From a phage: DNA of 50,709 bases. Below the pieces are notes generated by a model. That model made no database searches, was not told where the DNA came from, and worked only from the letters and a program-made list of their open reading frames with translations. Positions within the stretch are counted from its first letter, which is position 1, and each line of letters opens with the position of its first letter. This document shows, one piece after another, positions 6,675 to 26,143 of the stretch. The DNA lies in sequence record NC_105617.1; one strand, 5' to 3'. A program made the translations under genes and the position numbers.

Positions 6675-6696
6675 TTAACAAAAAGTGCTATTATTG
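6675..6696 (+). promoter_or_regulatory. Reverse-oriented TAGCAC box forming extended -10 (TGcTATTAT) upstream of major capsid gene
   Basis: ttaacaaaaagtgctattattg; box is the reverse complement of the early-cassette box. Confidence 0.4.
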
Positions 6697-6697
6697 A

Positions 6698-6727
6698 AGC
6701 CGTGAACATAATCACGGCTTTTTTTAT
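6698..6727 (+). terminator. Intrinsic terminator
   Basis: agccgtga...cacggct hairpin plus T-run, upstream of capsid gene RBS. Confidence 0.55.
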
Positions 6728-6746
6728 TAACTAAGGAGAAGTAATC

Positions 6747-7706
6747 ATGACTACTAAAAAATTTGATGAAGCAGATAAGAGCAATGTTGAAATGTATCTG
6801 ATCCAGGCTGGCGTAAAACAGGATGCAGCCGCAACGATGGGTATCTGGACCGCTCAGGAACTACACCGCATCAAAAGCCAGTCCTATGAAGAAGACTACC
6901 CGGTAGGCTCCGCACTTCGAGTATTCCCGGTTACTACCGATCTATCTCCGACCGACAAGACGTTTGAGTATATGACCTTTGATAAGGTTGGTACTGCGCA
7001 GATTATCGCTGACTATACAGATGACCTGCCTCTGGTTGATGCGCTTGGTACTTCTGAGTTCGGTAAGGTGTTCCGCTTGGGTAACGCGTACCTGATTTCA
7101 ATCGACGAAATCAAAGCAGGTCAGGCAACTGGTCGACCGCTGTCAACCCGCAAGGCAAGCGCGTGTCAGTTAGCGCATGACCAACTGGTTAACCGTCTGG
7201 TGTTCAAAGGTTCCGCGCCGCACAAGATCGTGTCCGTGTTCAACCATCCGAACATCACCAAAATTACCTCCGGTAAGTGGATGAATGTCTCAACTCCGAA
7301 GCCGGAAACGGCTGAAGCGGAATTGACTCAGGCGATTGAAACCATCGAGACGATTACTCGCGGTCAGCATCGTGCAACCAACATTCTGATCCCGCCGTCC
7401 ATGCGTAAGGTTCTGGCGATCCGTATGCCTGAAACTACCATGTCTTACCTGGACTATTTCAAGTCTCAGAATGCTGGTATCGAAATCGACTCTATCGCAG
7501 AGCTTGAAGATATCGACGGTGCGGGTACTAAAGGCGTACTGGTGTACGAAAAAAATCCGATGAATATGTCCATCGAGATCCCGGAAGCATTTAACATGCT
7601 GCCAGCGCAGCCGAAAGACCTTCACTTTAAAGTGCCTTGCACCTCCAAGTGTACTGGCCTTACAATTTATCGTCCGATGACTATTGTCTTAATCACTGGC
7701 GTGTAA
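6747..7706 (+). CDS. Major capsid protein
   Basis: 319 aa ORF bracketed by intrinsic terminators, strong RBS AAGGAG; position and size typical of a siphovirus coat protein. Confidence 0.65.
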   Translation: MTTKKFDEADKSNVEMYLIQAGVKQDAAATMGIWTAQELHRIKSQSYEEDYPVGSALRVFPVTTDLSPTDKTFEYMTFDKVGTAQIIADYTDDLPLVDALGTSEFGKVFRLGNAYLISIDEIKAGQATGRPLSTRKASACQLAHDQLVNRLVFKGSAPHKIVSVFNHPNITKITSGKWMNVSTPKPETAEAELTQAIETIETITRGQHRATNILIPPSMRKVLAIRMPETTMSYLDYFKSQNAGIEIDSIAELEDIDGAGTKGVLVYEKNPMNMSIEIPEAFNMLPAQPKDLHFKVPCTSKCTGLTIYRPMTIVLITGV

Positions 7707-7713
7707 TATTATA

Positions 7714-7741
7714 GGGACTAACTTAGTTGGTCCCTTTTTTA
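7714..7741 (+). terminator. Intrinsic terminator after major capsid gene
   Basis: gggactaac...gttggtccc hairpin plus T6. Confidence 0.6.
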
Positions 7742-7755
7742 TTGGAGAAATCAAA

Positions 7756-8046
7756 ATGGCTAAAGAAAAAACTGTTGTTATCGTAAACGTTGGTGTAGCG
7801 CTTCAGATGTTCCGTCTTGAAGATGGCTCATTCGCAAAGGTTCTCCCGGATGAAGAGGTGACACTCCCAGCATCCGCACTTGAATTGCCCGGGCTGCGTT
7901 GCTTGATTGCTCGCGAAGAAATCGAAGTAAAAGACGACAGTGCCACCAACCGGGAAATCCGCGCAGAGATGGCTAAACTTAAAAAACCTGATCCGTGGGA
8001 TAAGATGAGCGTAAAAGAGCTTGAAGACGGCGGCGAATACTATTAA
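7756..8046 (+). CDS. Hypothetical structural protein
   Basis: 96-aa ORF with RBS, flanked by terminators on both sides. Confidence 0.35.
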   Translation: MAKEKTVVIVNVGVALQMFRLEDGSFAKVLPDEEVTLPASALELPGLRCLIAREEIEVKDDSATNREIRAEMAKLKKPDPWDKMSVKELEDGGEYY

Positions 8047-8052
8047 TCAACA

Positions 8053-8076
8053 AGGCGCTTAATGCGCCTTTTTTTA
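8053..8076 (+). terminator. Intrinsic terminator
   Basis: aaggcgc-ttaat-gcgcctt hairpin plus T7. Confidence 0.6.
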
Positions 8077-8088
8077 TAGGTGGAAATT

Positions 8089-8502
8089 ATGGATCAAGAA
8101 ACATTAAACAAAGTGGTCGAGCAAATGAGAAAGCTGGTTCCGGCACTTCGCAAGGTTCCAGACGAAACGCTTTATGCATGGGTAGAAATGGCTGAGCTAT
8201 TTGTATGCCAGAAGACCTTTAAAGATGCATACGTCAAGGCGCTTGCTCTTTATGCATTGCACCTTGCTTTCCTTGATGGGGCGCTAAAAGGTGAAGATGA
8301 GGATCTTGAATCGTACTCACGACGCGTTACGTCATTCTCCCTGAGCGGTGAATTTAGCCAGACTTTTGGAGAGGTGACGAAGAACCAGTCAGAGAACATG
8401 ATGCTTTCGACGCCGTGGGGTAAGATGTTCGAACAGCTTAAAGCGCGACGCCGTGGTCGATTCGCATTAATGACAGGACTCCGTGGAGGATGCCACCAAT
8501 GA
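8089..8502 (+). CDS. Head-tail connector/adaptor (putative)
   Basis: ATG 8089 behind RBS AGGTGGA; position between capsid and tail genes. Confidence 0.35.
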   Translation: MDQETLNKVVEQMRKLVPALRKVPDETLYAWVEMAELFVCQKTFKDAYVKALALYALHLAFLDGALKGEDEDLESYSRRVTSFSLSGEFSQTFGEVTKNQSENMMLSTPWGKMFEQLKARRRGRFALMTGLRGGCHQ

Positions 8503-8870
8503 ACTACTCACAGATCGAAAGGATGGCTCGCAAAGGCGTGGCTTTCTTCACCGATGCATCAAGACCTATGAACCTGATAAAGCAAGGTGAATACGGATAT
8601 GATGAAAACGGATTCGAGATCCCACCGATGGAACAGGTTATTCCAATATCCGGCGCGACGCGAAGACCGAACGCGCGTGAGATTGACGGGGAGACTATCC
8701 GCGCCTCAGACCTTTTGGGGATCTTCAATAACGACCATGAAATAAACGAAGGTGACTATATAGAGATTGACGGCGTTCGTCATGTTGTCGTTGATGCTCG
8801 CCCGGTTCAGGCGTCACTGAAACCAGTCGCCTATCGCCCAGTATTGCGGAGGGTATCAGTAGGTGGCTAA
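8499..8870 (+). CDS. Head completion protein (putative)
   Basis: ATGA start/stop overlap with upstream gene; RBS GGAGGA 8 nt upstream. Confidence 0.35.
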   Translation: MNYSQIERMARKGVAFFTDASRPMNLIKQGEYGYDENGFEIPPMEQVIPISGATRRPNAREIDGETIRASDLLGIFNNDHEINEGDYIEIDGVRHVVVDARPVQASLKPVAYRPVLRRVSVGG

Positions 8871-9306
8871 TTATCAGATTCGTAGATTTCAAGGTGAGAT
8901 TGATGCGTGGATTAAGGCCGCTGAAAGCACGTTAGAACATTCCATTGAGATATTTGTAAGGGATGTTCACGACGCGCTCGTTAGCCGTTCTCCCGTCGAC
9001 ACGGGGCGCTTTAAGGGTAACTGGCAGATAACTTTTAACGAAACCCCTAACTACGCATTAAATCGATACGATAAAACTGGCGGCGTCGTCCGTAGTGAGG
9101 AGCAAGCCAAAACTTATGGCATGTTCAGCCGTGGGGGCGCGATAACATCCGTTCACTTCTCAAACATGTTGATTTATGCAAACTCTCTTGAGTACGGTCA
9201 TTCACAACAAGCGCCAAACGGCGTCGTCGGGCTGGTTGCATTGAGATTGCGATCGTATATGGCAGACGCAATAAAGCAAGCAAGGAGACAACAAAATGCA
9301 CTATGA
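8863..9306 (+). CDS. Head-tail joining / neck protein (putative)
   Basis: 147 aa, GTG start overlapping upstream stop; position in neck module. Confidence 0.35.
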   Translation: MANYQIRRFQGEIDAWIKAAESTLEHSIEIFVRDVHDALVSRSPVDTGRFKGNWQITFNETPNYALNRYDKTGGVVRSEEQAKTYGMFSRGGAITSVHFSNMLIYANSLEYGHSQQAPNGVVGLVALRLRSYMADAIKQARRQQNAL

Positions 9307-9694
9307 GTTATCAGCGGCGGCGCGAGCCGCCTTTCTGTCGAAGTATAGAGACTTTCCTCACTACATGGAAAACAGGAACTTTACACCACCGAAGGATGGC
9401 GGCATGTGGCTAAGGTTCAACTACATTGAAGGGGATACGCTTTATCTATCAATTGACAGAAAGTGTAAATCTTACATTGCAATAGTTCAGATCGGAGTTG
9501 TGTTCCCTCCTGGTTCCGGCGTTGATGAGGCAAGATTGAAAGCAAAAGAGATTGCTGATTTTTTCAAAGATGGTAAAATGCTTAACGTTGGTTATATTTT
9601 CGAAGGTGCAATCGTGCATCAAATTGTTAAACACGAAAGCGGATGGATGATTCCGGTTCGCTTTACAGTACGAGTAGATACAAAGGAGACTTAA
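9296..9694 (+). CDS. Tail terminator/completion protein (putative)
   Basis: 132 aa; precedes putative major tail protein. Confidence 0.35.
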   Translation: MHYELSAAARAAFLSKYRDFPHYMENRNFTPPKDGGMWLRFNYIEGDTLYLSIDRKCKSYIAIVQIGVVFPPGSGVDEARLKAKEIADFFKDGKMLNVGYIFEGAIVHQIVKHESGWMIPVRFTVRVDTKET

Positions 9695-9695
9695 T

Positions 9696-10364
9696 ATGCA
9701 CTTACCAAATGGCGCGCAAATTTTCGTGGAAACCTCTCGCGGAGAAGAGATCGAGGCGACCGCTGTCACTAACGCAAAAAATCCTGTTGCTACAGTTGCA
9801 TCTAAGGGCGACTTGGCAAAAGGTGATTACGTTATTGTAACTCAGTCAACTTGGGCTAAGATGGTTAGTCGAGTACTTATTGTTACCGATGCTCAGGAAA
9901 CAAGCATTACTCTTGCTGGAATTGACACTACTGATACTCTTGTTTTCCCGGCTGGCGGTACGATGAGCTTTGCAAAAGTTACTGGCTGGACTGAGATTCC
10001 TTGCGTACAGGAGATTGGTCAGGACGGCGGTGAGCAGCAGTACTACACTTATCAGTGTTTGTCCGACGATAAAGAGCAGCAGATCCCGACGTTTAAATCT
10101 GCAATCTCGCTAACTTACACCTTCGCGCACGAATTTGATAACCCGATCTACCCTATTCTGCGTAAGCTGGATTCTTCTGGTCAGGTAACTTCGGTTCGTA
10201 TGTATGTTCCAAAAGCGAACGAGATGCGCATGTGGGCTGGCATCTTGTCTTTTAACGACATTCCGTCTACGCAAGTAAACGAAATGGAAACGGTACAACT
10301 AGCCGTATCCCTGAAGGGTGATTTCACTTTCGTTTCATCCTCTCTGGCATCACCTGGTGCCTAA
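9696..10364 (+). CDS. Major tail protein (putative)
   Basis: 222 aa, followed by GC hairpin; located just upstream of chaperone/tape-measure genes. Confidence 0.5.
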   Translation: MHLPNGAQIFVETSRGEEIEATAVTNAKNPVATVASKGDLAKGDYVIVTQSTWAKMVSRVLIVTDAQETSITLAGIDTTDTLVFPAGGTMSFAKVTGWTEIPCVQEIGQDGGEQQYYTYQCLSDDKEQQIPTFKSAISLTYTFAHEFDNPIYPILRKLDSSGQVTSVRMYVPKANEMRMWAGILSFNDIPSTQVNEMETVQLAVSLKGDFTFVSSSLASPGA

Positions 10365-10376
10365 ATCATATCCACA

Positions 10377-10400
10377 GGGGGCTTGCGCCCCCTTATTCAT
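10377..10400 (+). terminator. Terminator-like hairpin after putative major tail gene
   Basis: gggggc-ttgc-gccccc followed by T-rich tract. Confidence 0.35.
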
Positions 10401-10438
10401 TTCTGTAAAATCATCGTATCAACTTTTCACTATTCTCT

Positions 10439-10470
10439 TTTAACAAAAAGTGCTATTAACCAATCAGGAG
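10439..10470 (+). promoter_or_regulatory. Reverse-oriented TAGCAC box plus CCAATCAGGAG leader upstream of tail chaperone gene
   Basis: tttaacaaaaagtgctattaaccaatcaggag. Confidence 0.4.
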
Positions 10471-10477
10471 AAATATC

Positions 10478-10795
10478 ATGGCTAAATTTAATTTCGTTCT
10501 TGGTCAACTTCCAGACTTCAAACTTCCAGTCACCTTCACCATGCCTAACGGTGAAGATGCAACGATCATTTTCACTGTACGCCACCTTTCCAGTAAAGAA
10601 GTTCAGGATATGTATGCCAACCAGGGAGAAATGAACGATAGCGAGTTCATTACCAAGATCGCGTCAGGATGGAACCTTGAAGAAGAATTTAACGAAGAAA
10701 ATGCGCGAAAACTGGTTCAGTATTATCCTTCAGCAGCGTACAACCTGACAGCGACTTACATCAAGGCTCTCGCCGGACACCGCGCAAAAAACTAA
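10478..10795 (+). CDS. Tail assembly chaperone (G-like)
   Basis: 105 aa directly upstream of tape measure; ends in slippery heptamer A_AAA_AAC. Confidence 0.55.
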   Translation: MAKFNFVLGQLPDFKLPVTFTMPNGEDATIIFTVRHLSSKEVQDMYANQGEMNDSEFITKIASGWNLEEEFNEENARKLVQYYPSAAYNLTATYIKALAGHRAKN

Positions 10796-11112
10796 AAAGG
10801 GCGGTCTATCTGTTATATCAGAAGCCGCCAACAGAGGAACAATTGCGATCGGTTGGCTTAAGTCTTTCCGACTATGAAGACGAGGAGCCTGAAACGATAA
10901 TTGGCGACGCTGAAATGGTGAAGGCTTGGAATGTTTTTACATCAATGCTCACTCAGTGGAGAAGTTCAGGCGCTGGCGCTTACGGTCTTGATTATAATGT
11001 TTTGCCTATGTTGTTTAAAATCTATAAAATAGAAGATGAAGAACTGGCATTGCAGGACGTTAGGATCATGGAAGCGAAAGCGCTTGAAATGATTGCTAAG
11101 CAGAATAACTAA
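10478..11112 (+). CDS. Tail assembly chaperone, -1 frameshift fusion (GT-like)
   Basis: The -1 frame is open from the slippery site at 10786-10792 to 11112 with no stop; classic G/GT arrangement before the tape measure gene. Confidence 0.45.
10786..10792 (+). other. Candidate -1 programmed ribosomal frameshift slippery heptamer
   Basis: A_AAA_AAC in the zero frame of the chaperone gene, 1 codon before its stop; -1 frame open to 11112. Confidence 0.45.
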
Positions 11113-11113
11113 G

Positions 11114-11134
11114 CCGCCGTTTGGCGGTTTTTTT
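11114..11134 (+). terminator. Intrinsic terminator before tape measure gene
   Basis: ccgcc-gttt-ggcgg hairpin plus T7. Confidence 0.55.
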
Positions 11135-11151
11135 GTATATAAGGGGGTTAT

Positions 11152-14025
11152 ATGGTTGATAAGGTAGCAGGTCTATCGCTTGACGTTGATGTGTCGACAG
11201 TACAGCGCGCCGTCAAGTCATTGAAAGAGTTTTCAAAAGCTAACGACCAAGCCGCTGACTCTATGGGGTCTTTAATCAATGAGGCCGAGGTTGCAAAACA
11301 GAAGGCTAAAGAACACGCTGAGCAACTTAAGCGCCAGCGCAAAGAGTACGAGGCTGTAGAAAAGGCAATCGATCCTACAGTATCAAAAATGGAAAGGCTG
11401 AAGATTGCATCTCAGCAGCTTGATAAACTCTGGCAAAAGGGCATTGTTCCAGATGAAACATTTTTCCGTTTGGGTGAAATGCTGGACATGCAAAATGCAA
11501 AACTTGCTCGCAGCCGGGCCATGCTTACTGAAGAGGGGCAGGCAGCATTGCAGGAAGCGAAAGCAAAAGAGCAGGCAGCAGCGAAAAACAAAGCGTTCAT
11601 GGATTCCCTTAACAGTCAGGTTAACGCTATTGGCAAAACTCACGCAGAGTTAATGGAACTGAAAGCGGCTCAGCTTGGGCTATCAAATGAAGCAGCGCCA
11701 CTGATCGCAAAACTGAAAGAGCAGGGTCGAGCCATGAATGCCGCAGGTATTAGCGCGGGGCAATATAGGCAGGCAATGCGAATGCTTCCTGCACAGATTA
11801 CCGACGTCGTTACATCTCTTGCGTCCGGTATGCCAGTTTGGATGGTTGCCATCCAGCAAGGCGGTCAAATTAAGGACTCGTTCGGAGGGATCGGGAATAC
11901 GTTTAAGGTATTGCTCAGCTATATTAATCCGGTCACAGTTGGCGTTGGTGTTCTTGTCGGCTCTTTAGGACTTCTTGCGAAAGCTGGTTATGACTCTTAC
12001 AAGTCAATAACTGATATGCAGAAGGCTCTTGTTGAGACTGGAGGTTACGCAGGAGTCACGGCTGAAGAACTTGATTCTGTTGCTAAAAAGGTGGCTCAGA
12101 CGAGCAACTCAACAATTTCAAGCATTCGTGAGATTGTTACTGAACTTGCCAGTACGGGGAAGTATACGCGAGAGCAGATTCAGAACATCACAAAGGCTAC
12201 CGCTGAGTGGTCGACAGCAACCGGAAAATCAGCAAGTAAAATCATCGCTGAGTTCGATAAAATCGCAAGCGATCCTGTAAAGGGTCTGGCTAAACTTAAC
12301 GAGCAATACAACTTTTTAGAAAAAGGTCAACTGACATATATCGATACGCTAAGCCGTACTAAGGGTGAAACGGAGGCAGTGTCTGAAGCAACAAAATTAT
12401 TCGCCGAAGTTATGGAGAAGCGAATGAAGTCGATCGCAGACAATGCCACTCCTCTTGAAAAAATGTGGAACGATATTAAGCAGTGGGCCTCTGATGCGTG
12501 GGGGTGGGTTGGGGATCATACTCTCGGAGCATTAAACCTGATTATTGACGTAGTTCAGGGTACGGTAATTCAGGTAAAAATGATTCTGGCGAAGGGCGAT
12601 GAGTACATATCAAACTTTATAGCCTCTGCAATTAAGGCTACGCAGTCTCTGCCTGGAATGAGTGATTTCGGCGCTGATGTACTAAAGGAACAGGAGAATA
12701 TTGTAAAAAGTTCTCGTGACAACTACGATCAGTTAGCTTCAGAGCTTGATGCCATCAACGCCCGTGTTGAAAAAGGTGAGATGGGATACATTGAAGCAAT
12801 GAAGCAGCGCCGTACTCTTGAAAAGCAGTATAGCCAGGAAACTAAGGACGCTATCAAGGAAGAAGCTGAAGAGATCGAAAAGCGAAACCGTGAACGAAAT
12901 AAGCAGTCGAAAATTTTACGCTCACCTACAGAGCAATTCGATAAGGAGTTAATTTCACTCAAAGCACAGCTTAAGGTTTTGCAGGAGCACAAGGAGATAG
13001 GGCAAAAACTATCAGCACAGAGAAAGGCGCTGTTTACGACTGAGGCTACAATTGCCGTTCTTAGAGAAGCTAGTTCTAAGCGTCAGTTATCTGCGGAAGA
13101 AAAAGCACTACTTGCAAACCAGGAGAAAGTTTTAGAGCTTGCGAAACAAAAGGCCGAGATTGGCGATCAGATTGTTAAGCAGCAGCAGTTGAACGCTCTT
13201 ACTGATAAATCACTGAAGTTTGTCAATGATTTGACGGCAGCTACAGAGCAGCTAAACGCGTCTCGCGGGATGAGCACCCGAGAAATGGAGCGACAAGCGG
13301 AGTTGGCTAAGATCACCACTGACTATATTAATGCGGGTGGCAGCGAAGGGGATGAAAAACTCCAGAACATGATCAAGGCGCAAAATGATTACTATGCTGC
13401 GGAAGATGCCAAGCGTGCTGACTGGTTGGCAGGTGCTGAAAGCGCATTTGCAGATTACGGCGATTCCGCAATGGATATGTATGGTAACGTATATGATATA
13501 GCGTCAAGTTCACTTAACGGAATGAGTGATATGATGACCCAATTCCTGACTACAGGTAAGGCAAACTTTGAGGACTTTGCGAAAAACATCATTAGCATGA
13601 TTATAAAGATGATTGCTCAGATGGTAATCTTCAATACGATCTCAGGCATGATGGGCGGTAAGACGTGGAGCTTTGCTGGAGTGGCGTCGTCTGGTGCTTC
13701 TGCGGCATCACAGGCAACCCCTACGCCTGCCGCCTCCGGTTTTAGGTCTTTATCATCGGGCGTTGCTGTTACCTCGCTTGCTGCCGCAGCTGGTAGTGTG
13801 GCAACATCTGGATTTAACGCATCTAAAGCAGCGCCGAAGGCAGTAAACCAATCAGCAGGTGGGACGGTCGTTGACGTTAGGGGCATGGAGGTTAAAGTTG
13901 ACAATGGTTCAGATCCGAGAGGAATTTCTCAGGGCGTAGAGATGATGTTCAAAAAAATGATTCGCGAATCTTGTTCTCAGGGCGGTGAGGTTTACAATTA
14001 CATTCAGGAAAAAACAGGAGGCTAA
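11152..14025 (+). CDS. Tail tape measure protein
   Basis: 957 aa, long coiled-coil regions, Gly/Ala/Ser-rich C-terminal part; position between chaperones and M/L/K/I/J-like genes. Confidence 0.9.
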
Positions 14026-14027
14026 TA

Positions 14028-14381
14028 ATGGCGGCACTTGATACTTTTAGTTGGTGTACGCAGGTTCAAGGGGGCGGCGGCTCCCTTACCACTACCAACA
14101 ATGACAGATCCATACAGTTTGGCAACGGCTACATGCAGCTTGCATCTTCTGGATTTAACACCACGAGACGCGAGTATTCGGTTGTCTACGCTGGTGATGA
14201 TTTCATGGCTGTTTACAACTTCTGTGATTCTCATCGAATTAAACCTTTCGCATGGACACCTCCAGACGGGAAGATCGGGGTATGGGTAGTTAAGCCAAAT
14301 AGTTTGGGAGCGAAACCTGTATCACGGGACGTGATGGAAATTAACGTAACGTTTATGGAGCAGTTTACATCTATGCAATAG
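14028..14381 (+). CDS. Minor tail protein (lambda M-like)
   Basis: 117 aa immediately after tape measure; size and position match lambda gpM. Confidence 0.55.
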   Translation: MAALDTFSWCTQVQGGGGSLTTTNNDRSIQFGNGYMQLASSGFNTTRREYSVVYAGDDFMAVYNFCDSHRIKPFAWTPPDGKIGVWVVKPNSLGAKPVSRDVMEINVTFMEQFTSMQ

Positions 14382-14397
14382 CACTTAGTGACAAAAG

Positions 14398-14419
14398 CCC
14401 GCCTTGCGCGGGTTTTTTT
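14398..14419 (+). terminator. Intrinsic terminator (copy 1 of identical element)
   Basis: cccgccttgcgcggg + T7; preceded by TAGCAC box overlapping upstream stop; followed by TAGAAT. Confidence 0.6.
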
Positions 14420-14460
14420 GTAGCTGTAGAATGGTTGCAACTAAACAAGAGGAAAAGAAA

Positions 14461-16576: not shown

Positions 16577-16611
16577 CCCGCCTTGCGCGGGTTTTTTTTC
16601 GCCTGTATAAT
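16577..16611 (+). terminator. Intrinsic terminator (copy 2, identical 22 nt) with downstream TATAAT
   Basis: cccgccttgcgcggg + T8 then gcctgTATAATgg. Confidence 0.6.
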
Positions 16612-16647
16612 GGGTTAACCGATAAACAGCACAAAAAGGTAAACATC

Positions 16648-19600: not shown

Positions 19601-20100
19601 AAAAACTTGACTCTTGGAGTAATGCGAGTTCTACCGGGGCGATGTACGGCGTTAAGCTGGGGCTGAAATACAACGGGCAGGAATACAGCGCAGGAATGGC
19701 TATGTCCCTGATTGGTTCCGGCGCGGCTGTTAAGGCTCAGATTCTTTTTGAGGCGTCACGATTTGCAATCATGACCGGGATGAATGGAAAGACACAATAC
19801 CCGTTTGTTGTTGAGAATGGTCAGGTTATTTTAAGTAGCGCGATCATTAAAAACGGATTCATCACTAATGCTATGATTGGAAACGTTATTCAATCGAATA
19901 ACTTCTCTTCAGGTAGTGCTGGATGGATGGTTAACAAGAATGGATCGGCTGAGTTTAATGCGGTTACTGTCAGAGGCAAACTTTACGCAAGTAACGGTGA
20001 GTTTGCATTCAACGGAACGGGTAATACCGTTCAGATTAACAATAACGGCATCACGGTAAACTTACCTGGTGGCGGGAAAGTTGTAGTGGGGAGGTGGTAA
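16648..20100 (+). CDS. Tail tip / host specificity protein (lambda J-like)
   Basis: 1150 aa, last gene of the tail operon, fibronectin-III-like segment (WSNIVAATLTG), coiled-coil region, followed by terminator. Confidence 0.85.
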   Translation: MIQKVISGSKGGSPKPHNPVEMEDNLISINKIKILLAVSDGEIDETFNLKQLMFNSVPVQNEDGSFNFEGVTAEFRSGTQTQEYIKGMEDSSSEVTVNREITTDNPYTISVTNKTLSAIRIKMFMPRGVRIESNGDKNGVRVEYEVQQAVDSGSFETVLTDVIEGKTMSGYDRSRRINLPNFNNQVIFRIVRKTPDSDNSNVVDAIQVKSYAEVIDAKFRYPLTGLLFVEFDSKMFPNQLPTISIRKRWKIINVPSNYDPESRTYNGNWDGTFKKAWTNNPAWVLYDLMINQRYGLDQKELGISVDKWALYEAAQYCDQMVPDGKGGTEPRYLCDVIIQSQTDAYKVIRDICSIFRGMSFWNGESISVIIDRPREPAYIFTNDNVVNGDFSYTFASEKSMYTTCNVMFDDEQNMYQQDVEPVFDREATLRFGNNVTSITAIGCTRRSEANRRGRWILKTNLRSTTVNFATGLEGMIPTIGDVVAIADNFWSSNLTMNLSGRLLEVSGRQIFLPFRVDARAGDFIIVNKPDGKPVKRTISSVSADGKTIEINIGFGFPVKPNTVFAIDRTDLALQQYVVTKIDKGDDDEEFTYKITAVEYDPNKYDEIDYGVNIDDRPTSIVEPDQIPRPENVKVSSESRIVQGMSVETMIVSWDKVPYAVFYDVQWRKDNGNWQNVPQTANKEVYVEGIYAGNYQVRVRSVAGSGTTSGWSNIVAATLTGKQGEPGRPINLTATDDVVFGIRTKWGFSDGSGDTAYTELQQSPDGTVDNASLLSLIPYPQHEYYHSPMPGGNIVWYRVRTVDRIGNVSQWTDFVRGMASTNVDDIIGEISVDIENSPGYEWLVDNATDNAAQNAANAEAAIENALANDKDAIYMKKENGKRKAEYTKSLKLIADETQARVTSIEQLKASFDDQISASNSELREVIATETGAISREIDQLKAQIGDDIQASLTDIREAIANETEARTQADLTLNARLGNNEAALAQKLDSWSNASSTGAMYGVKLGLKYNGQEYSAGMAMSLIGSGAAVKAQILFEASRFAIMTGMNGKTQYPFVVENGQVILSSAIIKNGFITNAMIGNVIQSNNFSSGSAGWMVNKNGSAEFNAVTVRGKLYASNGEFAFNGTGNTVQINNNGITVNLPGGGKVVVGRW

Positions 20101-20107
20101 AATATAA

Positions 20108-20129
20108 GGGGCCGAGTGGCCCCTTTTTT
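20108..20129 (+). terminator. Intrinsic terminator after J-like gene
   Basis: ggggcc-gagt-ggcccc plus T6. Confidence 0.6.
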
Positions 20130-21102
20130 AATACATGTTCGGAAGAACTATCAACGGAGATTGAATTGCTATGTTCCTGTTAGGCATCACGAATTGCTGT
20201 CGAGAGTAGTTGCCAACAACCTTATTTTTAGCAACTCTTACCTTGTTTCCAGCCATTCTAATCCCGTTCATCCTTACGTGGTTATATCCTCCATTCCCTT
20301 CAATAAGTGCGCCGCAGTATGATAGCTGAATCAAGCTGTTTCCTATATCCTGATCCCCCGTTCCGATGTTGATTACGCGGTTGTAAACGAATGGCTTATT
20401 TACTGTAGAAAAAGTAACCTGACCTTGCTTGTTTGTCATTGTTATACCGTTACCGCCGCGAGGTGGAGTGTTATTGAATATAACTAAATCCATAGAAACA
20501 GAGGCTGTTACGTCATCTCTCCCCCCGTATGATGCATTCCTTACCGTGATGTTTGAACCGTCAAATCCAACGCTTACATTAGGATCGTCCCATCTGGCGA
20601 AAGGTATGCCGCTTACTGGCAACTTCATGTTTCCATTTACAGTTATACGTTTTGAGTATTGGCACGTCATTAATTTTGCAACGTTTGATATAGCTGTGAA
20701 ATCAGTAGAGTTTGCAACCAGTAAGCCCTCGTTTCTTGTTCCTACTGGCAATATTTCCATGACAGTACCAGCCCATTGAGGTAGCCCGTTATATGCACTC
20801 AATGCATCATCGCCTCTAATTATCACTCCGCTATTGCCATTCCTTGATACCGTCGTCGCATAAAACGGATCTGGTATAACAAGTGTCTGGTCGAACACCT
20901 CAATAACGTCAACAGGTTTTGTGAAAACAACAACAACCTGAGATCCCGGAGTTAATGGAGTATTTACTGTTAACGTCTTGTTTGATTGCGCCCTCTGATT
21001 AAAGTTAGCGCAGAATGACGGTGCGCGAAGCCCTGCCGTTATTTGCATCGCTGGTCGTCCGTCATTGTAGTTTACATATATCCCCTCACCCATAATTACC
21101 AC
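20128..21102 (-). CDS. Hypothetical beta-rich protein; candidate receptor-binding/host-range protein
   Basis: 324 aa, Gly/Asn/Thr/Val-rich; start overlaps the stop of the upstream Cor-like gene (same strand); function inferred from context only. Confidence 0.3.
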   Translation of the reverse strand: MVIMGEGIYVNYNDGRPAMQITAGLRAPSFCANFNQRAQSNKTLTVNTPLTPGSQVVVVFTKPVDVIEVFDQTLVIPDPFYATTVSRNGNSGVIIRGDDALSAYNGLPQWAGTVMEILPVGTRNEGLLVANSTDFTAISNVAKLMTCQYSKRITVNGNMKLPVSGIPFARWDDPNVSVGFDGSNITVRNASYGGRDDVTASVSMDLVIFNNTPPRGGNGITMTNKQGQVTFSTVNKPFVYNRVINIGTGDQDIGNSLIQLSYCGALIEGNGGYNHVRMNGIRMAGNKVRVAKNKVVGNYSRQQFVMPNRNIAIQSPLIVLPNMY

Positions 21103-21326
21103 TCCTTAGTTTTGACTGAGATCTTACCGCTAAAGTTGCCCTGATTGTCGTCTGATGAAAGGCCTTTGAATCGCATGTCAACTTCTCCAGCAGGCACTTT
21201 CTTACCGTCAATGAATCGCATCATGCAAGATCCGTAAGCGTAAGTAACACAGTCGCCATTCTTAAGATTCTGAGCGCAACCAGTCAGGATGAACGCAGCG
21301 GCGATAATGGTGATTAACTTTTTCAT
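21096..21326 (-). CDS. Cor-like outer-membrane lipoprotein (superinfection exclusion candidate)
   Basis: 76 aa; signal peptide with lipobox LTGC (MKKLITIIAAAFILTGC); own sigma70-like promoter upstream; size and position next to tail genes as for cor in T1/phi80-type phages. Confidence 0.5.
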   Translation of the reverse strand: MKKLITIIAAAFILTGCAQNLKNGDCVTYAYGSCMMRFIDGKKVPAGEVDMRFKGLSSDDNQGNFSGKISVKTKEW

Positions 21327-21355
21327 TTGTATGCCCTCGTCGTTAGTGTGTTTGA

Positions 21356-21384
21356 ATTGTATGTCGCATTTACTTTTATTGCAA
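21356..21384 (-). promoter_or_regulatory. Sigma70-like promoter for cor-like operon
   Basis: Minus strand TTGCAA-17 bp-TACAAT, about 25 nt upstream of RBS GAGGG. Confidence 0.5.
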
Positions 21385-21399
21385 TAGTTCGATTACAAT

Positions 21400-21790
21400 T
21401 TTTTTTCGCGTAACAGGTGTCTATTTTTGTAACTGGAAGTGGTGTTACAAAATCGACCTCATTCGACCGCAGGTAGATATGATAAAAACTCTATATAATA
21501 TATATAGATAGATAATATTTAATTTTAGCTTTATATATATAATTATTGCTGTGTAACAGTTGTCTATCATGTAACAGGTGATTTGATTGATTCGTCAAAT
21601 TTCTATCATATATGTTCAAAATTTAATCAATCTTGGTTCTATTCATGGATATCTGTGTATTTATAAGAAAAAGCGGTTACAAGTGTTACACAATATACAC
21701 CACATAAAATCAGTGTTAATCTATTGATTCCATTGATGCTGGTTGTAACTTGAGCGATATAGACACACGATTACACACCAATTACATGTA
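21400..21790. repeat. AT-rich divergent control region with iteron-like repeats (hub 1)
   Basis: GTAACAG(G/T)TGTCTAT at 21411 and 21556, further GTAACAGGTG/GTTACAA copies, long (TA)n tracts 21490-21545. Confidence 0.5.
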
Positions 21791-21795
21791 TTCGA

Positions 21796-21823
21796 TTGAC
21801 TAAACGCTGTTAATGGCTATAAT
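21796..21823 (+). promoter_or_regulatory. Consensus-like sigma70 promoter for exonuclease-erf-ssb operon
   Basis: TTGACT-16 bp-TATAAT, 31 nt upstream of the start codon at 21855. Confidence 0.55.
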
Positions 21824-21854
21824 GGATTCATCGTAAACGAAGGAGATAAACGAA

Positions 21855-22919
21855 ATGTTCCAGGTATTCACATCAAACCAGCTTTCTAATGACGAGTATC
21901 ATAGCAATGAAGGTTGGGCGGCAGAGTATGTAAGCGGATCGAGCCTTGCAGAAATTTATCAGACCTGCCCGGCTAACTGGCGATTCAAGAAAAACGAGAC
22001 AACGAAAGCGCTGGAGTTCGGTACTCAGTCTCATACCAACTTCGAGAGTCGCGATCTGTTTACTGCAACTTATGCTCGTTGTCCGGCTCCGTCAGAGTTT
22101 AAAGATCTCATTACTTCGCAAGCTGCACTGGCGGCAAAATTAAAATCCTTTGGCCTGAAAGGTACATCCGGTAAGCAGTACCCTGACCTCATCAAAATGA
22201 TGGTTGATTGTGGTGAAGAACTCAATGTCCAATACCTGATTGAACTGATCGCAGAGGCTGAGGCGCGCGCTGAAGGAAAGCAACTCGTTGACGCTGATAA
22301 ATACGACGCCTGCATGAAGATGAGAGCCATACTTGAGCAAAACCCTGATCACGAAGCGTGCATCAACAGCGAAACGGCGCAGCGGGAGATCTCAATCTTT
22401 GGCGAGATATCCGGCGTCAAGGTTAAGGTTAGACTTGACCATCTGGACTACAAAGAGAATGTTCCAGGCCGCGTGCTGACTGGTTATGATGAGAATGGTG
22501 ATCCTGTATTTGAAGACGTGATTTTCCCTGAAGCGCTGATTATTACTGACTTCAAAACCACGATGAGCGCCAACCCGTTAGAGTTCCCGAGACTGGCATA
22601 CAATCACGGGTATTATCTTAAAATGGCCTTGCAGCATGACTTATTGCGGCGTGCAATTCAGGCTGGAGCATTTGAAGGAAACTTCCCGGAAGATATCCCG
22701 ATCGTAGTTCGATTACTGGCACAGGAGAAAAAGGAACCTTACATTGCCCTTGCTTATCGCATGACTATGGAGCAAATCAGGATCGGTCGTAACCAGTACA
22801 TTAGCGTAGTCCACACTTACAAGGCTTGCTCTGAGATGGATGTATGGCCTGGATATGCTGGCGACGCAAGCGAGATCGAACTCGAAACGCCGTCATGGGT
22901 ACGATATCAAAACAAGTAA
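21855..22919 (+). CDS. Recombination-associated exonuclease (putative)
   Basis: 354 aa, first gene after a consensus sigma70 promoter, immediately upstream of Erf-like and SSB genes; possible PD-(D/E)xK signature (IITDFKT); weak on sequence alone. Confidence 0.4.
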   Translation: MFQVFTSNQLSNDEYHSNEGWAAEYVSGSSLAEIYQTCPANWRFKKNETTKALEFGTQSHTNFESRDLFTATYARCPAPSEFKDLITSQAALAAKLKSFGLKGTSGKQYPDLIKMMVDCGEELNVQYLIELIAEAEARAEGKQLVDADKYDACMKMRAILEQNPDHEACINSETAQREISIFGEISGVKVKVRLDHLDYKENVPGRVLTGYDENGDPVFEDVIFPEALIITDFKTTMSANPLEFPRLAYNHGYYLKMALQHDLLRRAIQAGAFEGNFPEDIPIVVRLLAQEKKEPYIALAYRMTMEQIRIGRNQYISVVHTYKACSEMDVWPGYAGDASEIELETPSWVRYQNK

Positions 22920-22929
22920 ACGGCACAAA

Positions 22930-22985
22930 TAGCTAAACAAATAATTAATGAGGTGTTATAATGCACCTCATACACCAATCAGGAG
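22930..22985 (+). promoter_or_regulatory. Degenerate box-hairpin cassette upstream of erf-like gene
   Basis: tagctaaac box, hairpin gaggtg/cacctc with TATAAT in loop, then CACCAATCAGGAG leader. Confidence 0.4.
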
Positions 22986-22993
22986 AAGTTAAG

Positions 22994-23641
22994 ATGCAAT
23001 TATCACCGGAAACAAACGAAATCCTCCCAGCACTGTTTAATGCTCGCAATAAATTCGCTAAGGCAAAGAAGGACGCTAAAAACAATCACCTGAAAAATTC
23101 ATACGCAACTCTTGATGCAATGATGGCGGCAGTTAGTCCGGCGTTAACTGATAACGATATCATGATCCTGCAATCAATGCTTGATACCAGCACGGAAACA
23201 ACATTCCATCTTGAGACTATGCTGATTCACAAATCAGGGCAATGGGCCAAATTCTTCATGATGATGCCTATTGCAAAACGCGATCCGCAAGGTGTAGGTT
23301 CAGCAATGACTTATGCGCGACGTTACTCTCTTGCCGCAGCGCTGGGAATTAGCCAAAGTGACGATGACGCTCAGCTTGCTGTGAAATCTGTCAAGGACTG
23401 GAAGAAAGAACTTGATGCGTGCGAAGATATCGAATCACTGAAGGATGTTTGGGCCAATGCTTACCGCCAGACTGACACGGCTAGCAAGTCAATAATTCAG
23501 GATCATTACAACGCACTGAAGGCGAAGTTTGAGATCGGCAAGGCTCGCGGCATTCGCCCGGCGCAACCGGAACGGAAAAAACAGGTTGAAGCAACAAGCG
23601 CGAAACCTGTACAATCTCAATCAATAACAAACTTCGAATAA
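22994..23641 (+). CDS. ERF-family single-strand annealing protein
   Basis: Motifs KNSYATL and GSAMTYARRYSLAAALGISQSDDDA resemble the ERF signature as recalled; adjacent to SSB. Confidence 0.6.
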   Translation: MQLSPETNEILPALFNARNKFAKAKKDAKNNHLKNSYATLDAMMAAVSPALTDNDIMILQSMLDTSTETTFHLETMLIHKSGQWAKFFMMMPIAKRDPQGVGSAMTYARRYSLAAALGISQSDDDAQLAVKSVKDWKKELDACEDIESLKDVWANAYRQTDTASKSIIQDHYNALKAKFEIGKARGIRPAQPERKKQVEATSAKPVQSQSITNFE

Positions 23642-23687
23642 TCACCCGGGCGGCTTTGGTCGCCCATAAATTTTAGGAGAGAAAATC

Positions 23688-24104
23688 ATGCATATTATCA
23701 CTGGCGAGATCCGAAAAGAACCTAAGATTCTTGAACGCAACGGCGGCAACACTTATATCATCGAAATGGCAGAAAGCTACAAGCCTCGTGATGGAGATCG
23801 CGAATACACCAACTACACATTCTTTTTTAGCGACGGTGGAAAACCTGGGCTTGCTGATTGGTATCGTGAGGCGTTCCAAGTTGGTCGGGTAATCTCAGTA
23901 TCGTGCGAGACGTTGAAGATCTCATCCCGTGAACATAACGGAACGGTTTATAATTCATTACAGGCAGCTGACTTCCCTAAGCTGGTATTCAGTCAGCGAG
24001 GTCAAAGCAACCAGCAGCAACGATCGCCACAGCAACACGCTAATCAGCAGTCACAACCACAACCAAATCCTCAATCAACTTTCGACGACGATATTCCATT
24101 CTAA
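23688..24104 (+). CDS. ssb: Single-stranded DNA-binding protein
   Basis: 138 aa, Q/P-rich linker and canonical acidic tail ...FDDDIPF at the C-terminus. Confidence 0.8.
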   Translation: MHIITGEIRKEPKILERNGGNTYIIEMAESYKPRDGDREYTNYTFFFSDGGKPGLADWYREAFQVGRVISVSCETLKISSREHNGTVYNSLQAADFPKLVFSQRGQSNQQQRSPQQHANQQSQPQPNPQSTFDDDIPF

Positions 24105-24135
24105 CAAAAAGCCCCGCAATGCGGGGCGTCTTTTT
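24105..24135. terminator. Bidirectional intrinsic terminator between ssb and tail fiber
   Basis: gccccgcaatgcggggc hairpin flanked by A-run and T-run. Confidence 0.65.
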
Positions 24136-26107
24136 ACTTACTATTAAGTAAAGATTTTACAATCAATTTCAATTCCTCAACTTCATTCCTTAATGAAACA
24201 ATTTCCTCCTCCTGCTCTTTGCACACCTGTAGCGTGTAGGCCGTTACAGCTCCATAGTCAACAGTGTAATATCGCTCTTCAAGAAAAAGAGGAGTCCCAT
24301 CCTGATTAACACCGTAAACACCATCCTCTTTCCTTCTGTAAGTTGTTCCAACAGCCTCCGGAACAACATCCATGAACTCCTGAGCTATAACCCCAGCATA
24401 AGGTAGTCCATCGTCCTTAAATGTGTACGTGTATCCTCCAACCTTTGACAGACCGCTCCTTGCGTTCTCTATAACCTTTATGTTTTCCTTTAAATCCCTG
24501 TCAGAGGTCTGATTAAAGGCTTTCGCCTCAGCAGTTCCTGATATGTTTAGAACGTGGCTATTATCGCTGTTTCTCTGTATATACATAGCGTAAGCCGAAG
24601 CGCCACCAGTCTCAAATAGAAATTCTATAACCCCAGGTCGCCCGGTATTGTTTCCCCACAATCTCTGTATTCCGTTAAGAGACGGAGATTGAACTTGGTG
24701 CGCCATGCTTCTTGAGCCATTGACATGATTAATGTTTCCAGCATTAACCCTTACCGCCCTTCCGGATTGTGCTGTTATTGCAACATCCCCAGGACCTTCA
24801 AGAGTTAATGAGTTTTTACCAATATCTGAATAAAGCGTTATATTTGTTGTTTCATTTGAACCCTTACCCAAAAAGAACGCTCTTGTTTTGTTTTTCCTGT
24901 AACCAGATAGAATTGGAGCGTCGTTACTCTCTGGTCTTATGTCTAAATATGAATTAGTGGTTAGACCTTTCGCGGCAGATAAAGCTCCTGGAACTCTTAA
25001 GTCACCGTTCTTTGAAAAATCAAGGAATTGAGGGTTGTTATTATCACTCCTGTTAATTAATGAAAAATTACCACCGCCGCTAGCCCTGATCTCACCTTGA
25101 GAAATAACATCCCCTCCGATAGATCCGGAGTAGTGAACCCATACAGTTGACGGCCCTACAGTGTTTAACTGCCCGACAGATTGGTTTACAATGCTCCCGT
25201 TCGTGTTCTTAATACCTAAAAACTCAGGTGTATTTTTTTTACCTAACCCCAAATTATCACGGGACTTTGATGCATCCTGAACATCACTAAGGTTTTTATC
25301 CTTGCGAAGTAGATTCGCTGCATCAACGCTATTTGCTGCGTCCTTAGCTTCCTGCGCGCTTACTGACGCCGCACCCTTTGCGCTAACCGCAGAATCACGC
25401 GCCGCCTGGGCGTCGTTTTTTGCTGAGGTTGCAGTTTGCGCCGCCGCCTGGGCGTTGTTAACGTAACCTGACAGATCTCCTTTGGCGTCATTGATTGCTT
25501 TAATGGCTGCTTTCTCTTCCGTGTCGATGTGCGTAATCGCCGCTGATTCTTTAGAGCCTACATCTGTGATCGCTTGTTCTTTTGCTGCATTGATGCTACC
25601 GACTGCCCCGTCAACAATTTGCTGAACTTGGCCTTTGGTGGCTTTAGCTTCGTCACGTGCTGCATTCGCTGAGTCGCGAGCAAGTTCCGCTTGATTCTGT
25701 GCAGATTCAGCGGCTGATTTGTTCGCCTTAATTTCTTCAACGATGCGGTTAAGGTTATCCATATCCAGACTCGCAATGATATCCATTGCCCCGGCAATCT
25801 CAGTCTCTTTGCTTTGATAGTATCGAAGCGTCTCAGCGACGTTTTGAGCCAATCCGTTAACAGTCAGTGAATCGTTAAGCAAGATCACATACTTACCGTC
25901 AGAGGCAGTCTGACCGTCGGTAGAGATAGCCTTTAATTCTGTGTCGCTAACGATATCGCTAATCACCGCCAGCTTAATTGGTTGCTCAAGGAATACGATA
26001 GTTGCACCTACGCGAATTAGAGCAAGCTGATCTTTCCATTTTGTATCGGTTCCGTGAACCGTTCCGTCTGCATCCATCGATGCTGTACCGCGTCTGTATA
26101 AAGCCAT
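24134..26107 (-). CDS. Tail fiber with C-terminal intramolecular chaperone (peptidase S74-like) domain
   Basis: 657 aa; C-terminal segment SGLSKVGGYTYTFKDDGLPYAGVIAQEFMDVVPEAV typical of self-cleaving fiber chaperone domains; Ala/Gln-rich coiled-coil shaft. Confidence 0.7.
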   Translation of the reverse strand: MALYRRGTASMDADGTVHGTDTKWKDQLALIRVGATIVFLEQPIKLAVISDIVSDTELKAISTDGQTASDGKYVILLNDSLTVNGLAQNVAETLRYYQSKETEIAGAMDIIASLDMDNLNRIVEEIKANKSAAESAQNQAELARDSANAARDEAKATKGQVQQIVDGAVGSINAAKEQAITDVGSKESAAITHIDTEEKAAIKAINDAKGDLSGYVNNAQAAAQTATSAKNDAQAARDSAVSAKGAASVSAQEAKDAANSVDAANLLRKDKNLSDVQDASKSRDNLGLGKKNTPEFLGIKNTNGSIVNQSVGQLNTVGPSTVWVHYSGSIGGDVISQGEIRASGGGNFSLINRSDNNNPQFLDFSKNGDLRVPGALSAAKGLTTNSYLDIRPESNDAPILSGYRKNKTRAFFLGKGSNETTNITLYSDIGKNSLTLEGPGDVAITAQSGRAVRVNAGNINHVNGSRSMAHQVQSPSLNGIQRLWGNNTGRPGVIEFLFETGGASAYAMYIQRNSDNSHVLNISGTAEAKAFNQTSDRDLKENIKVIENARSGLSKVGGYTYTFKDDGLPYAGVIAQEFMDVVPEAVGTTYRRKEDGVYGVNQDGTPLFLEERYYTVDYGAVTAYTLQVCKEQEEEIVSLRNEVEELKLIVKSLLNSK

Positions 26108-26120
26108 AGTATAAACTCCT

Positions 26121-26143
26121 TAAGTAAATAGCACGAATTGCTA
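26121..26143 (-). promoter_or_regulatory. Reverse-oriented TAGCAC box upstream of tail fiber gene
   Basis: Minus strand reads ttagcaattcgtgctatttact directly before RBS GGAG of the fiber gene. Confidence 0.4.

Follow-up and report, generated by a model that had tools for sequence, protein, structure and literature searches.

T1-like phages are common contaminants in industrial fermentations and are also candidates for phage therapy. The window analyzed here (the whole 50,709-nt stretch of record NC_105617.1) is 99.8% identical to Escherichia phage Chapo and comes from a phage of this kind. It carries about 25 copies of a short box, nearly all of which lie between open reading frames. Matches to the box with at most three mismatches number 15 in the window against 0.02 expected, and GTGCTATT occurs 18 times against 1.7 expected. 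Judged by its sequence, the box is the published 21-nt Drexlerviridae repeat aaATAGCACnnnTTGnTAAAA. The TLS phage genome paper described 21-nt direct repeats with this consensus about 76 nt before start codons, oriented along transcription, and listed the function of the repeat as an open question for T1-like phages (PMC11447400). The window shares with that description the consensus, the approximately 20 intergenic copies, the phage family, and the central-triplet subtypes TTT, GAA, and AAA/TAA. Forward copies, about 20 in number, occupy the early regions at 27 to 50 kb and read ATAGCAC...TTGYTAA along transcription. Four further copies, preceding the capsid, tail chaperone, tail fiber, and pir genes, depart from the published pattern in that they are reversed relative to the gene and lie 10 to 55 nt from the ATG. 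The TLS table includes the capsid copy as DR7 on the minus strand, with no comment (PMC11447400).

A sequence-only reading of the window had placed reversed copies before three late structural genes, and its coordinates and sequences were borne out. TTAACAAAAAGTGCTATT is present exactly at 6675-6692 and 10440-10457 on the plus strand, both of which are exact reverse complements of ATAGCACTTTTTGTTAA. The third copy, on the minus strand at 26127-26144, reads TTAGCAATTCGTGCTATT, the exact reverse complement of ATAGCACGAATTGCTAA; it has four mismatches to TTAACAAAAAGTGCTATT but exactly matches the second common form of the box, which is also present at 39667, 43113, 47029, and 47549. All three of these copies are reversed against the approximately 20 copies at 27 to 50 kb, and the hexamers that follow TGc are TATTAT (capsid), TATTAA (chaperone), and TATTTA (fiber), as had been stated. 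The features discussed below are as follows.

6667-6694, plus strand: capsid promoter (-35 TTGACG at 6667-6672, 16-bp spacer, TG at 6686-6687, -10 TATTAT at 6689-6694)
6675-6692, plus strand: reversed repeat copy before the major capsid gene (ATG at 6747), exact match, kept in relatives
6696-6728, plus strand: terminator hairpin and T-run, the 5' arm beginning 2 nt past the capsid -10
10383-10411, plus strand: rightward sigma-70 promoter of the chaperone/tape-measure module (-35 TTGCGC at 10383-10388, 17 bp, -10 TAAAAT at 10406-10411)
10413-10418, minus strand: -10 TACGAT of a putative leftward repeat-driven promoter, 21 nt from the repeat and overlapping the rightward -10
10440-10457, plus strand: reversed copy before the tail chaperone gene (Shine-Dalgarno sequence at 10466-10470, ATG at 10478), exact match
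26127-26144, minus strand: reversed copy, variant TTAGCAATTCGTGCTATT, before the tail fiber gene (Shine-Dalgarno sequence at 26120-26116, ATG at 26107), conserved in Rtp
26151-26179, minus strand: fiber promoter TTGCAA-17-TAAAAT with TG, just past the primase terminator (26209-26192), annotated in Chapo
27204-27656, minus strand: homologue of T1 Orf23/Pir, 150 amino acids, Cro-like helix-turn-helix, candidate reader of the repeat
27668-27685, minus strand: reversed copy in the pir leader (about +16 to +33), abutting the Shine-Dalgarno sequence, in all 62 distinct relatives
27708-27736, minus strand: pir promoter TTGAAT-17-TATAAT, its -10 overlapping the helicase -10

The sequence-only reading had proposed that the reversed box itself forms an extended -10 element (TGcTATTWW) and that late transcription begins from it at each of the three genes. 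At the capsid gene this part of the claim stood. The box is kept at the orthologous position in 30 thinned and 45 distinct relatives and supplies the spacer and TG together with the initial 4 nt of the -10, so that the promoter reads TTGACG-16-TGcTATTAT; this is the only site that combines TG with an A at position 2 and a T at position 6 of the hexamer. The promoter scores 10/12 plus TG, is annotated in phage Chapo, has an A-tract upstream (cacaaaaa, 6655-6662), and is predicted to give a leader of about 45 nt with a ribosome site. TAnnnT is found at the capsid -10 in 42 of the 45 distinct relatives, with 3 more shifted by 1 nt, and TTG and the spacing are kept across genera; the arrangement of TTGnnn, a 15- to 17-bp spacer, and TATnnT persists in relatives whose capsid proteins are 57 to 100% identical. 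Matches from the promoter scanner were not counted alone because shuffled sequence gives similar numbers.

The full terminator hairpin at 6696-6728 has a predicted stability of -15.0 kcal/mol, and RNA begun 7 nt after the capsid -10 retains only -5.3; the start would thus fall inside the terminator stem. This location is enough to account for escape from termination, and the geometry is the same in 26 hairpin-bearing relatives. The spacer TTAACAAAAA(G/A)TGC is invariant across genera, which a sigma-70 spacer does not require. Since the Rtp capsid promoter (TTGCGT-17-TATAAT) has no repeat, the repeat is an added layer. No promoter is present on the opposite strand at the capsid box, where 2 of 46 relatives fit.

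A promoter role was not supported for the chaperone and fiber boxes. The hexamer in the box has the form TAnnnT in 1 of 28 distinct relatives at the chaperone gene and 1 of 29 at the fiber gene, the last T being absent from both in the window. The boxes end 13 to 21 nt from the ATG, so that a start driven by either would lie within the AGGAG ribosome site or beyond it and leave no usable leader. Separate, conserved promoters lie upstream of both. For the chaperone gene, 24 of 26 distinct relatives have a strong -10 at a distance of exactly 28 nt upstream of the box. TTGCGC is conserved as well, its window copy lying in the loop and 3' arm of a terminator at 10376-10393; this promoter places the box at about +22 to +39. 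For the fiber gene, 28 of 29 relatives have a strong -10 placed 5 to 6 or 11 nt ahead of the box, and the box spans about +1 to +18. (A single-protein primase search reached close relatives alone, and an alignment was used instead.) The fiber promoter of Klebsiella phage Sushi does read aTGcTATTAT, in favor of the extended -10 proposal, but a reversed copy also stands before the early gene pir, where the box hexamer has the form TAnnnT in 0 of 62 relatives. We therefore regard a box-encoded promoter at all three sites as unlikely. The capsid promoter is the single true promoter among the three proposed late ones, which can guide the design of transcript mapping and reporter constructs.

The reversed copy at pir (27668-27685) had been overlooked in the sequence-only reading. 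It is kept in relatives that include Rtp, Sushi, and Vibrio phage Vc1, and like the chaperone and fiber boxes it adjoins the ribosome site, the three ending 10 to 21 nt from the ATG. A forward copy adjoins the ribosome site of the late gene terS (50676-50692), and a degenerate one (16626-16642) adjoins that of a late J-like tail gene. The proposal that orientation separates early from late expression therefore fails, given a reversed copy before an early gene and forward copies before late ones.

A better divider is the position of the repeat relative to the promoter. A TAnnnT hexamer lies exactly 21 nt downstream of the approximately 20 forward copies, with no -35, and across the window, Rtp, and Sushi the same holds for 48 of 64 copies. 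This centers the forward repeat near -42 of promoters with a -10 and no -35, where class II activators bind. Copies of the second class fall within complete sigma-70 promoters or shortly after them. At two sites a single copy belongs to both classes. Read on the minus strand, 10440-10457 is an ordinary forward repeat for the leftward promoter at 10413-10418, whose antisense transcripts would enter the major tail gene at its 3' end; the hexamer at this distance has the form TAnnnT in 24 of 26 relatives, with middle bases that vary. Read on the plus strand, 27668-27685 is the forward repeat of the helicase promoter, whose repeat-driven -10 (TATTAT, 27707-27712, plus strand) overlaps the pir -10. 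No opposite-strand promoter was found at the fiber box (0 of 29 relatives).

The gene adjacent to a repeat in every lineage examined is pir. The window homologue matches PHROG 2856, "transcriptional regulator" (E = 4e-76), and its match to P22_Cro falls below threshold (E = 5.5e-5); its structural model (pLDDT 81), whose core resembles the Xfaso-1 and N15 Cro proteins, confidently predicts a Cro-like fold. Reporter assays identified T1 Pir as a regulator that activates the dam promoter and represses its own (PMC6737242), although that work defined no binding site and assayed no structural-gene promoter. In our mapping, the T1 dam fragment contains a perfect forward repeat with CATTAT 21 nt downstream, and the T1 pir fragment contains a perfect reversed repeat in the leader; the opposite responses of the two fragments are those that the two position classes predict. 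The agreement is incomplete. The T1 hol and recE fragments, which are regulated by Pir, lack a full repeat, and the orf65 promoter, reported to be Pir independent (PMC6737242), carries a perfect forward repeat, so that either Pir is not the sole reader or the repeat alone is insufficient. Among other early proteins, Pfam returned nothing for the gp16 homologue (32048-33199), leaving the sigma region 4 suggestion of the Sushi annotation unsupported, no domain for the Orf65 homologue (47062-47550), and no DNA-binding domain for nine more. A regulator code in the central triplet (TTT for Pir, GAA for Orf65) was considered and dropped because the triplet at the fiber site varies among lineages.

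Taken together, we consider it about an even call that the reversed boxes are operators, with the repeat being most likely the site of a phage regulator, for which Pir is the best candidate, and with the late copies holding back their promoters. This reading draws on the promoter anatomy and conservation observed here and on the effects of Pir on dam and its own promoter (PMC6737242), and it offers a testable model for the function of the repeat. A protein bound inside or just downstream of a promoter would block binding or escape of the polymerase, and the boxes are placed accordingly: in the spacer and -10 at capsid, at about +1 at fiber, about +16 at pir, and about +22 at chaperone. A conserved sigma-70 promoter precedes the box at chaperone, fiber, and pir, and pir is negatively autoregulated in T1. 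At the chaperone and fiber genes, the box sits downstream of an independent promoter and ahead of the ribosome site; Pir or another phage protein bound there would most likely restrain expression, and we infer the same negative sign at the capsid promoter. Near -42 of the forward promoters, the regulator would act as a class II-type activator. For as long as the regulator is plentiful, the operators would hold back its own promoter and those of the capsid and tail genes. At chaperone and pir, the repeat would also drive a divergent promoter whose -10 overlaps the sigma-70 -10, so that activating one should exclude the other. Late relief could perhaps come from titration of the auto-repressed regulator by the roughly 25 sites on each replicating genome.

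Several points weigh against this operator model. A repressor that is synthesized only once infection has begun cannot keep complete sigma-70 late promoters silent at time zero. Nor would a simple operator need all four reversed copies to face the same way relative to the gene, as they do. The Pir of Vibrio phage Vc1 is 45% identical and has a different helix-turn-helix sequence, yet its repeat is unchanged, so there is no regulator-repeat covariation to exploit; the invariant repeat also fits recognition by a conserved host polymerase. The literature yielded no time-resolved transcript or transcript-end data for a T1-like phage.

Direct reading by host RNA polymerase would make the repeat an UP-element or -35-like module upstream of a promoter and would make TGnTAT a sigma-70-dependent pause downstream of one. 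Phages that infect Escherichia, Klebsiella, and Vibrio, hosts with conserved polymerases, carry an invariant repeat; TTGYTA and AAAA occur within it, and the authors of the TLS paper remarked on a resemblance to UP elements (PMC11447400). However, the 22 bp that separate TTGYTA from the -10 exceed the reach of sigma region 4, and the conserved ATAGCAC half is not A/T rich. The pause-type hexamer lacks its last T at three sites, and the dam promoter responds to Pir (PMC6737242). We thus hold direct reading by the polymerase to be improbable.

We also give little weight to a role of the repeat as RNA, in which the leader box would pair with forward repeats in early polycistronic transcripts, or bind a protein, and so control translation or stability. 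The leader box is perfectly complementary to the forward repeat carried at gene ends, forward repeats overlap the stop codons of upstream genes and would be transcribed by read-through, and in all lineages the leader box directly adjoins the ribosome site at three genes. The capsid box, however, precedes the transcription start and is not part of the RNA made from the capsid promoter, and the fixed 21-nt distance from repeat to -10 is a feature at the DNA level. An Rfam scan of the whole window matched no RNA family, and Pir works on promoter-gfp fusions (PMC6737242). It is very improbable that the late copies are recombination scars between repeat-bearing cassettes, with no regulatory role, like the promoter-early stem-loops (PeSLs) of T4: many near-identical copies do lie between small genes in variable regions, and a hairpin accompanies the forward copies as in PeSLs, but the reversed copies keep orthologous position, orientation, and fixed distances across genera despite diverged flanking intergenic DNA.

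Returning to the operator reading, its broadest form is a single two-way switch, in which a Pir-type regulator activates the approximately 20 early promoters, restrains the capsid, tail, and pir promoters, and times the passage from early to late by titration. We put this forward tentatively and consider it rather doubtful as a whole. If it were true, the early set would include an antisense promoter into the tail operon, and no late activator, sigma factor, or antiterminator would be needed.

Compared with known systems, the capsid promoter resembles extended -10 sigma-70 promoters (TGnTATAAT): its TG (-15/-14) and its -10, which includes the key A and T, are both supplied by the repeat. A good -35 and an A-tract make it independent of the TG, and the chaperone and fiber boxes fail the -10 test. 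Like lambda PR'-qut-tR', the capsid site has a conserved element between the -35 and -10 and a terminator directly after. It differs in that Webervirus lacks the downstream hairpin and the start lies inside the terminator stem, and it does not qualify as a Q module; no Q-like protein was found in the annotations or among the scanned proteins. Mycobacteriophage L5 stoperators are likewise asymmetric, numerous, located in short intergenic gaps, and strongly biased in orientation, and the leader copies could block elongation in a similar way, but most copies in the window lie at a fixed distance upstream of a -10 and are promoter parts rather than elongation blocks. Dual regulators whose effect depends on position include CRP at class II sites (-41.5) and lambda CI, which at OR activates PRM and represses PR. 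The putative site in the window differs from theirs in being asymmetric, about 17 to 21 bp long, and present in about 25 copies per genome of an essentially virulent phage. The likeness is that one type of site occurs both near -42 of promoters with no -35 and inside or downstream of complete promoters and that, as at lambda OR, divergent promoters overlap at two sites in the window.

The window has the usual T1 gene order, with the small terminase as its first gene, followed by head, tail, recombination and replication genes and many small early genes. Over positions 6000-12000 it shares 99.8% identity with Escherichia phage vB_EcoS_Chapo (Tunavirus, Drexlerviridae), and identity to other T1-like phages is 92-98%. 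With respect to their downstream genes, the boxes before the capsid, tail chaperone and tail fibre genes are reverse complements of the early-region copies, as the sequence-only reading had stated for all three sites. Exact TTAACAAAAAGTGCTATT lies on the plus strand at 6675-6692 and 10440-10457, and the minus strand at 26127-26144 reads TTAGCAATTCGTGCTATT. The third copy should not be taken for a weak match, given that it is identical to the second common variant of the box, which is present at four early sites. The window contains 15 boxes when up to three mismatches are allowed, compared to 0.02 expected, and the core of the box, GTGCTATT, is present 18 times compared to 1.7 expected. The genome paper on phage TLS described a 21-nt direct repeat, aaATAGCACnnnTTGnTAAAA, at 18 intergenic places, oriented along the direction of transcription; it pointed to comparable repeats in T1, Rtp and Rogue1 and listed the function as open, with a stoperator, an enhancer or an UP element as guesses (PMC11447400). 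DR7 in the table of that paper, a single minus-strand copy directly before a head-region terminator that is passed over without comment (PMC11447400), is the capsid copy.

All copies from the window, Rtp and Klebsiella phage Sushi were aligned on the repeat. A TAnnnT hexamer lies exactly 21 nt past it in 48 of 64 copies (after forward repeats most commonly TATAGT, TATTAT or TATAAT), and forward copies have a conserved CATCGAAACGA about 7 nt beyond the hexamer, then the ribosome site and ATG. No -35 was found at 16-18 bp from the -10 in the forward-copy promoters of this alignment, and the distance from the repeat-internal TTGYTA to the -10 is 22 bp. If transcription starts 7 nt past the hexamer, the 17-nt core would span -50 to -34, with its centre at -42. 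The 38 nt past the repeat fold much better than shuffled sequence (mean z = -2.9; below -2 in 33 of 49), and the stems vary in sequence from copy to copy. Such hairpins occupy the stretch from the forward repeat to the presumed start (for example 42392-42429, 44186-44223 and 48862-48899), with the -10 in the loop or directly past the stem; across 27686-50692 none is followed by a T-run, and they are therefore not terminators. A leader, CATCGA(A/C)AACGA, is conserved about 7 nt past the forward-promoter -10 (e.g., 42425-42437) in the window, T1, Rtp, Sushi and Vibrio phage Vc1, and gives the most frequent 10-mer of the Vc1 locus. Forward repeats also overlap the upstream stop codon (30180-30182, 42376-42378, 44170-44172 and 48846-48848; on the minus strand, 40084-40086 and 27204-27206), which is a TAG inside AATAGCAC or a TAA at the repeat end, so that the upstream gene's transcript carries the repeat at its 3' end. 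The copy at 41191-41207 (minus strand), equivalent to T1 positions 104-120 close to the genome end, has no -10 at 21 nt and sits in a gap of ~220 bp between two divergent early blocks.

The reported boxes are copies of this repeat inside or directly past complete sigma-70 promoters. The features concerned, with a fourth reversed copy and two forward copies at late genes, are as follows.

6667-6672: -35 of the capsid promoter, TTGACG, followed by a 16-bp spacer
6686-6687 and 6689-6694: TG and hexamer of the capsid TGcTATTAT
26179-26151, minus strand: fibre promoter, TTGCAA-17-TAAAAT with TG, directly past the primase terminator
27668-27685, minus strand: fourth reversed copy, 22 nt past the -10 of TTGAAT-17-TATAAT (27736-27708)
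50676-50692: forward copy adjoining the ribosome site of the late gene terS
16626-16642: degenerate forward copy adjoining the ribosome site of the late J-like tail gene

The reversed box had been read as a TGcTATTWW extended -10 for late genes, and this holds at the capsid gene, where TGcTATTAT is conserved and accompanied by a -35, and fails at the other two sites. The capsid promoter scores 10/12 plus TG and is annotated as a promoter in Chapo. Among 63 related capsid loci, with capsid proteins 57-100% identical, no lineage has lost the A-tract, TTGnnn, the 15-17 bp spacer or TATnnT; TAnnnT is present in 42 of 45 distinct sequences, and the hexamer has a one-base shift in the remaining three. 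One relative without GTGCTAT still has a -10 (GATATT), and Rtp has a capsid promoter (TTGCGT-17-TATAAT) without the repeat, so there is selection on the promoter itself. The repeat is selected as well, given that the spacer TTAACAAAAA(G/A)TGC is invariant across genera and is not required by sigma-70. In 26 hairpin-bearing relatives, a terminator hairpin starts 1-3 nt past the capsid -10, with -11 to -15 kcal/mol for the full hairpin and -2 to -7 for RNA starting 7 nt past the -10. The window's capsid promoter is likewise nested in the preceding gene's terminator (6689-6728), whose 5' arm begins 2 nt past the -10, so that the promoter's own RNA lacks most of the arm (-15.0 kcal/mol in full, -5.3 in this RNA). 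We infer that the terminator halts upstream read-through and that the promoter's own transcripts begin inside the stem and escape.

At the chaperone gene, TGc is followed by TATTAA in the window and by TATCAA, TATCGG, TATCAC or TATTTA in relatives, with TAnnnT in only 1/28. Only 13-21 nt separate the end of the box from the ATG, so transcription beginning 7 nt past the hexamer would start in the ribosome site. Moreover, 24/26 relatives have a strong -10 (TAAAAT, TAGAAT or TACAAT) at exactly 28 nt upstream of the box; on these grounds the box was rejected as a -10 here. TTGCGC lies 17 bp upstream of that strong -10, within the loop of the preceding terminator. Three late terminators have TTGCGC in common as loop and 3' arm (10383-10388, ~14406-14411 and 16583-16588), 17 bp upstream of a -10 (TAAAAT, TAGAAT and TATAAT), so the hairpin also supplies the -35 for the promoter of the following module. 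On the opposite strand, 24/26 relatives have TACGAT, TAGGAT, TAGCAT, TAGAGT or similar at the standard 21 nt; read on that strand, the chaperone copy is a normal forward repeat belonging to a leftward promoter, whose -10 overlaps the rightward one. The constant 28 nt could accordingly be read a second way, as the spacing of the leftward promoter. This conserved promoter (10406-10457, minus strand) is directed, in antisense, into the 3'-terminal part of the major tail gene (9696-10364); downstream of the promoter no ORF was found to be conserved, and its product may be an antisense RNA.

The fibre box begins 6 nt past the fibre -10. Across 80 primase-anchored loci, a strong -10 precedes the box by 5-6 or 11 nt in 28 of 29 distinct sequences and the ribosome site follows within a few bases, while the box-end hexamer reads TAnnnT in 1/29 and an opposite-strand promoter was found in 0/29. 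The layout is identical in Rtp. The fourth copy abuts the ribosome site of gene 27204-27656, a layout found in all 62 distinct relatives and in Rtp, Sushi and Vc1; on the plus strand this copy serves the helicase promoter as its forward repeat, and the helicase -10 (27707-27712) overlaps that of the opposing promoter. The idea that orientation separates early from late expression has to be given up, given that forward copies also adjoin terS and the J-like gene.

Gene 27204-27656 is the homologue of T1 orf23; its product has a hit to PHROG 2856, "transcriptional regulator" (E = 4e-76), and a below-threshold hit to P22_Cro. The structure modelled from 25 homologues (mean pLDDT 81) has a core resembling Xfaso-1 and N15 Cro; TM-scores are 0.70-0.74 by target length, and the Foldseek E-values are weak. 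The best-conserved part of the protein (27207-27656, minus strand) is not the helix-turn-helix but residues 5-33, a basic N terminus (RIAxSTGEIDKRxxNGNNGTRRGKDKKPR) predicted to be disordered (pLDDT ~50). Using gfp fusions, Laganenka and colleagues found that Pir, their name for T1 Orf23, is an activator of the dam and hol promoters and a repressor of the recE promoter and its own, whereas Orf65 is a repressor of the pir promoter and an activator of its own; the repeat is not mentioned (PMC6737242). We mapped their fragments (150 bp upstream of the ATG and 15 bp beyond it) onto T1. A perfect forward repeat is present in the dam fragment, with CATTAT 21 nt later, and in the orf65 fragment; in the pir fragment the repeat is reversed and lies in the leader, and no repeat was found for hol or recE. 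The published direction of effect at dam and pir matches the prediction from repeat position. Separately, the T1 gp16 homologue of Klebsiella phage Sushi (32110-33240) carries a depositor-annotated sigma-70 region 4 domain; a Pfam search of the window's gp16 homologue (32048-33199) found nothing.

The layout of the reported boxes is the same as at the auto-repressed pir promoter. We propose that they are putative operators, through which a phage regulator would restrain the capsid and tail promoters, with extra competition at two sites from an overlapping repeat-driven promoter; late release by titration, over ~25 sites per replicating genome, is a suggestion only. We consider the chances of this model, with the boxes as candidate binding sites, to be evenly balanced. 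Against it count the two Pir-responsive fragments, hol and recE, that lack the repeat, and the orf65 promoter, which has the repeat and is reportedly Pir-independent (PMC6737242). The model also leaves silence at time zero and release late in infection unaccounted for. The repeat is invariant even where Pir has diverged, which likewise counts against the model and would also fit recognition of the repeat by host polymerase. Neither the repeat nor the regulator is a new element, and extended -10 promoters are likewise known. Judged by the searchable literature, what appears to be new is the second configuration of the repeat, promoter-internal or leader, conserved across genera, together with the -42 geometry of the forward copies and the connection of the repeat to the published Pir results.
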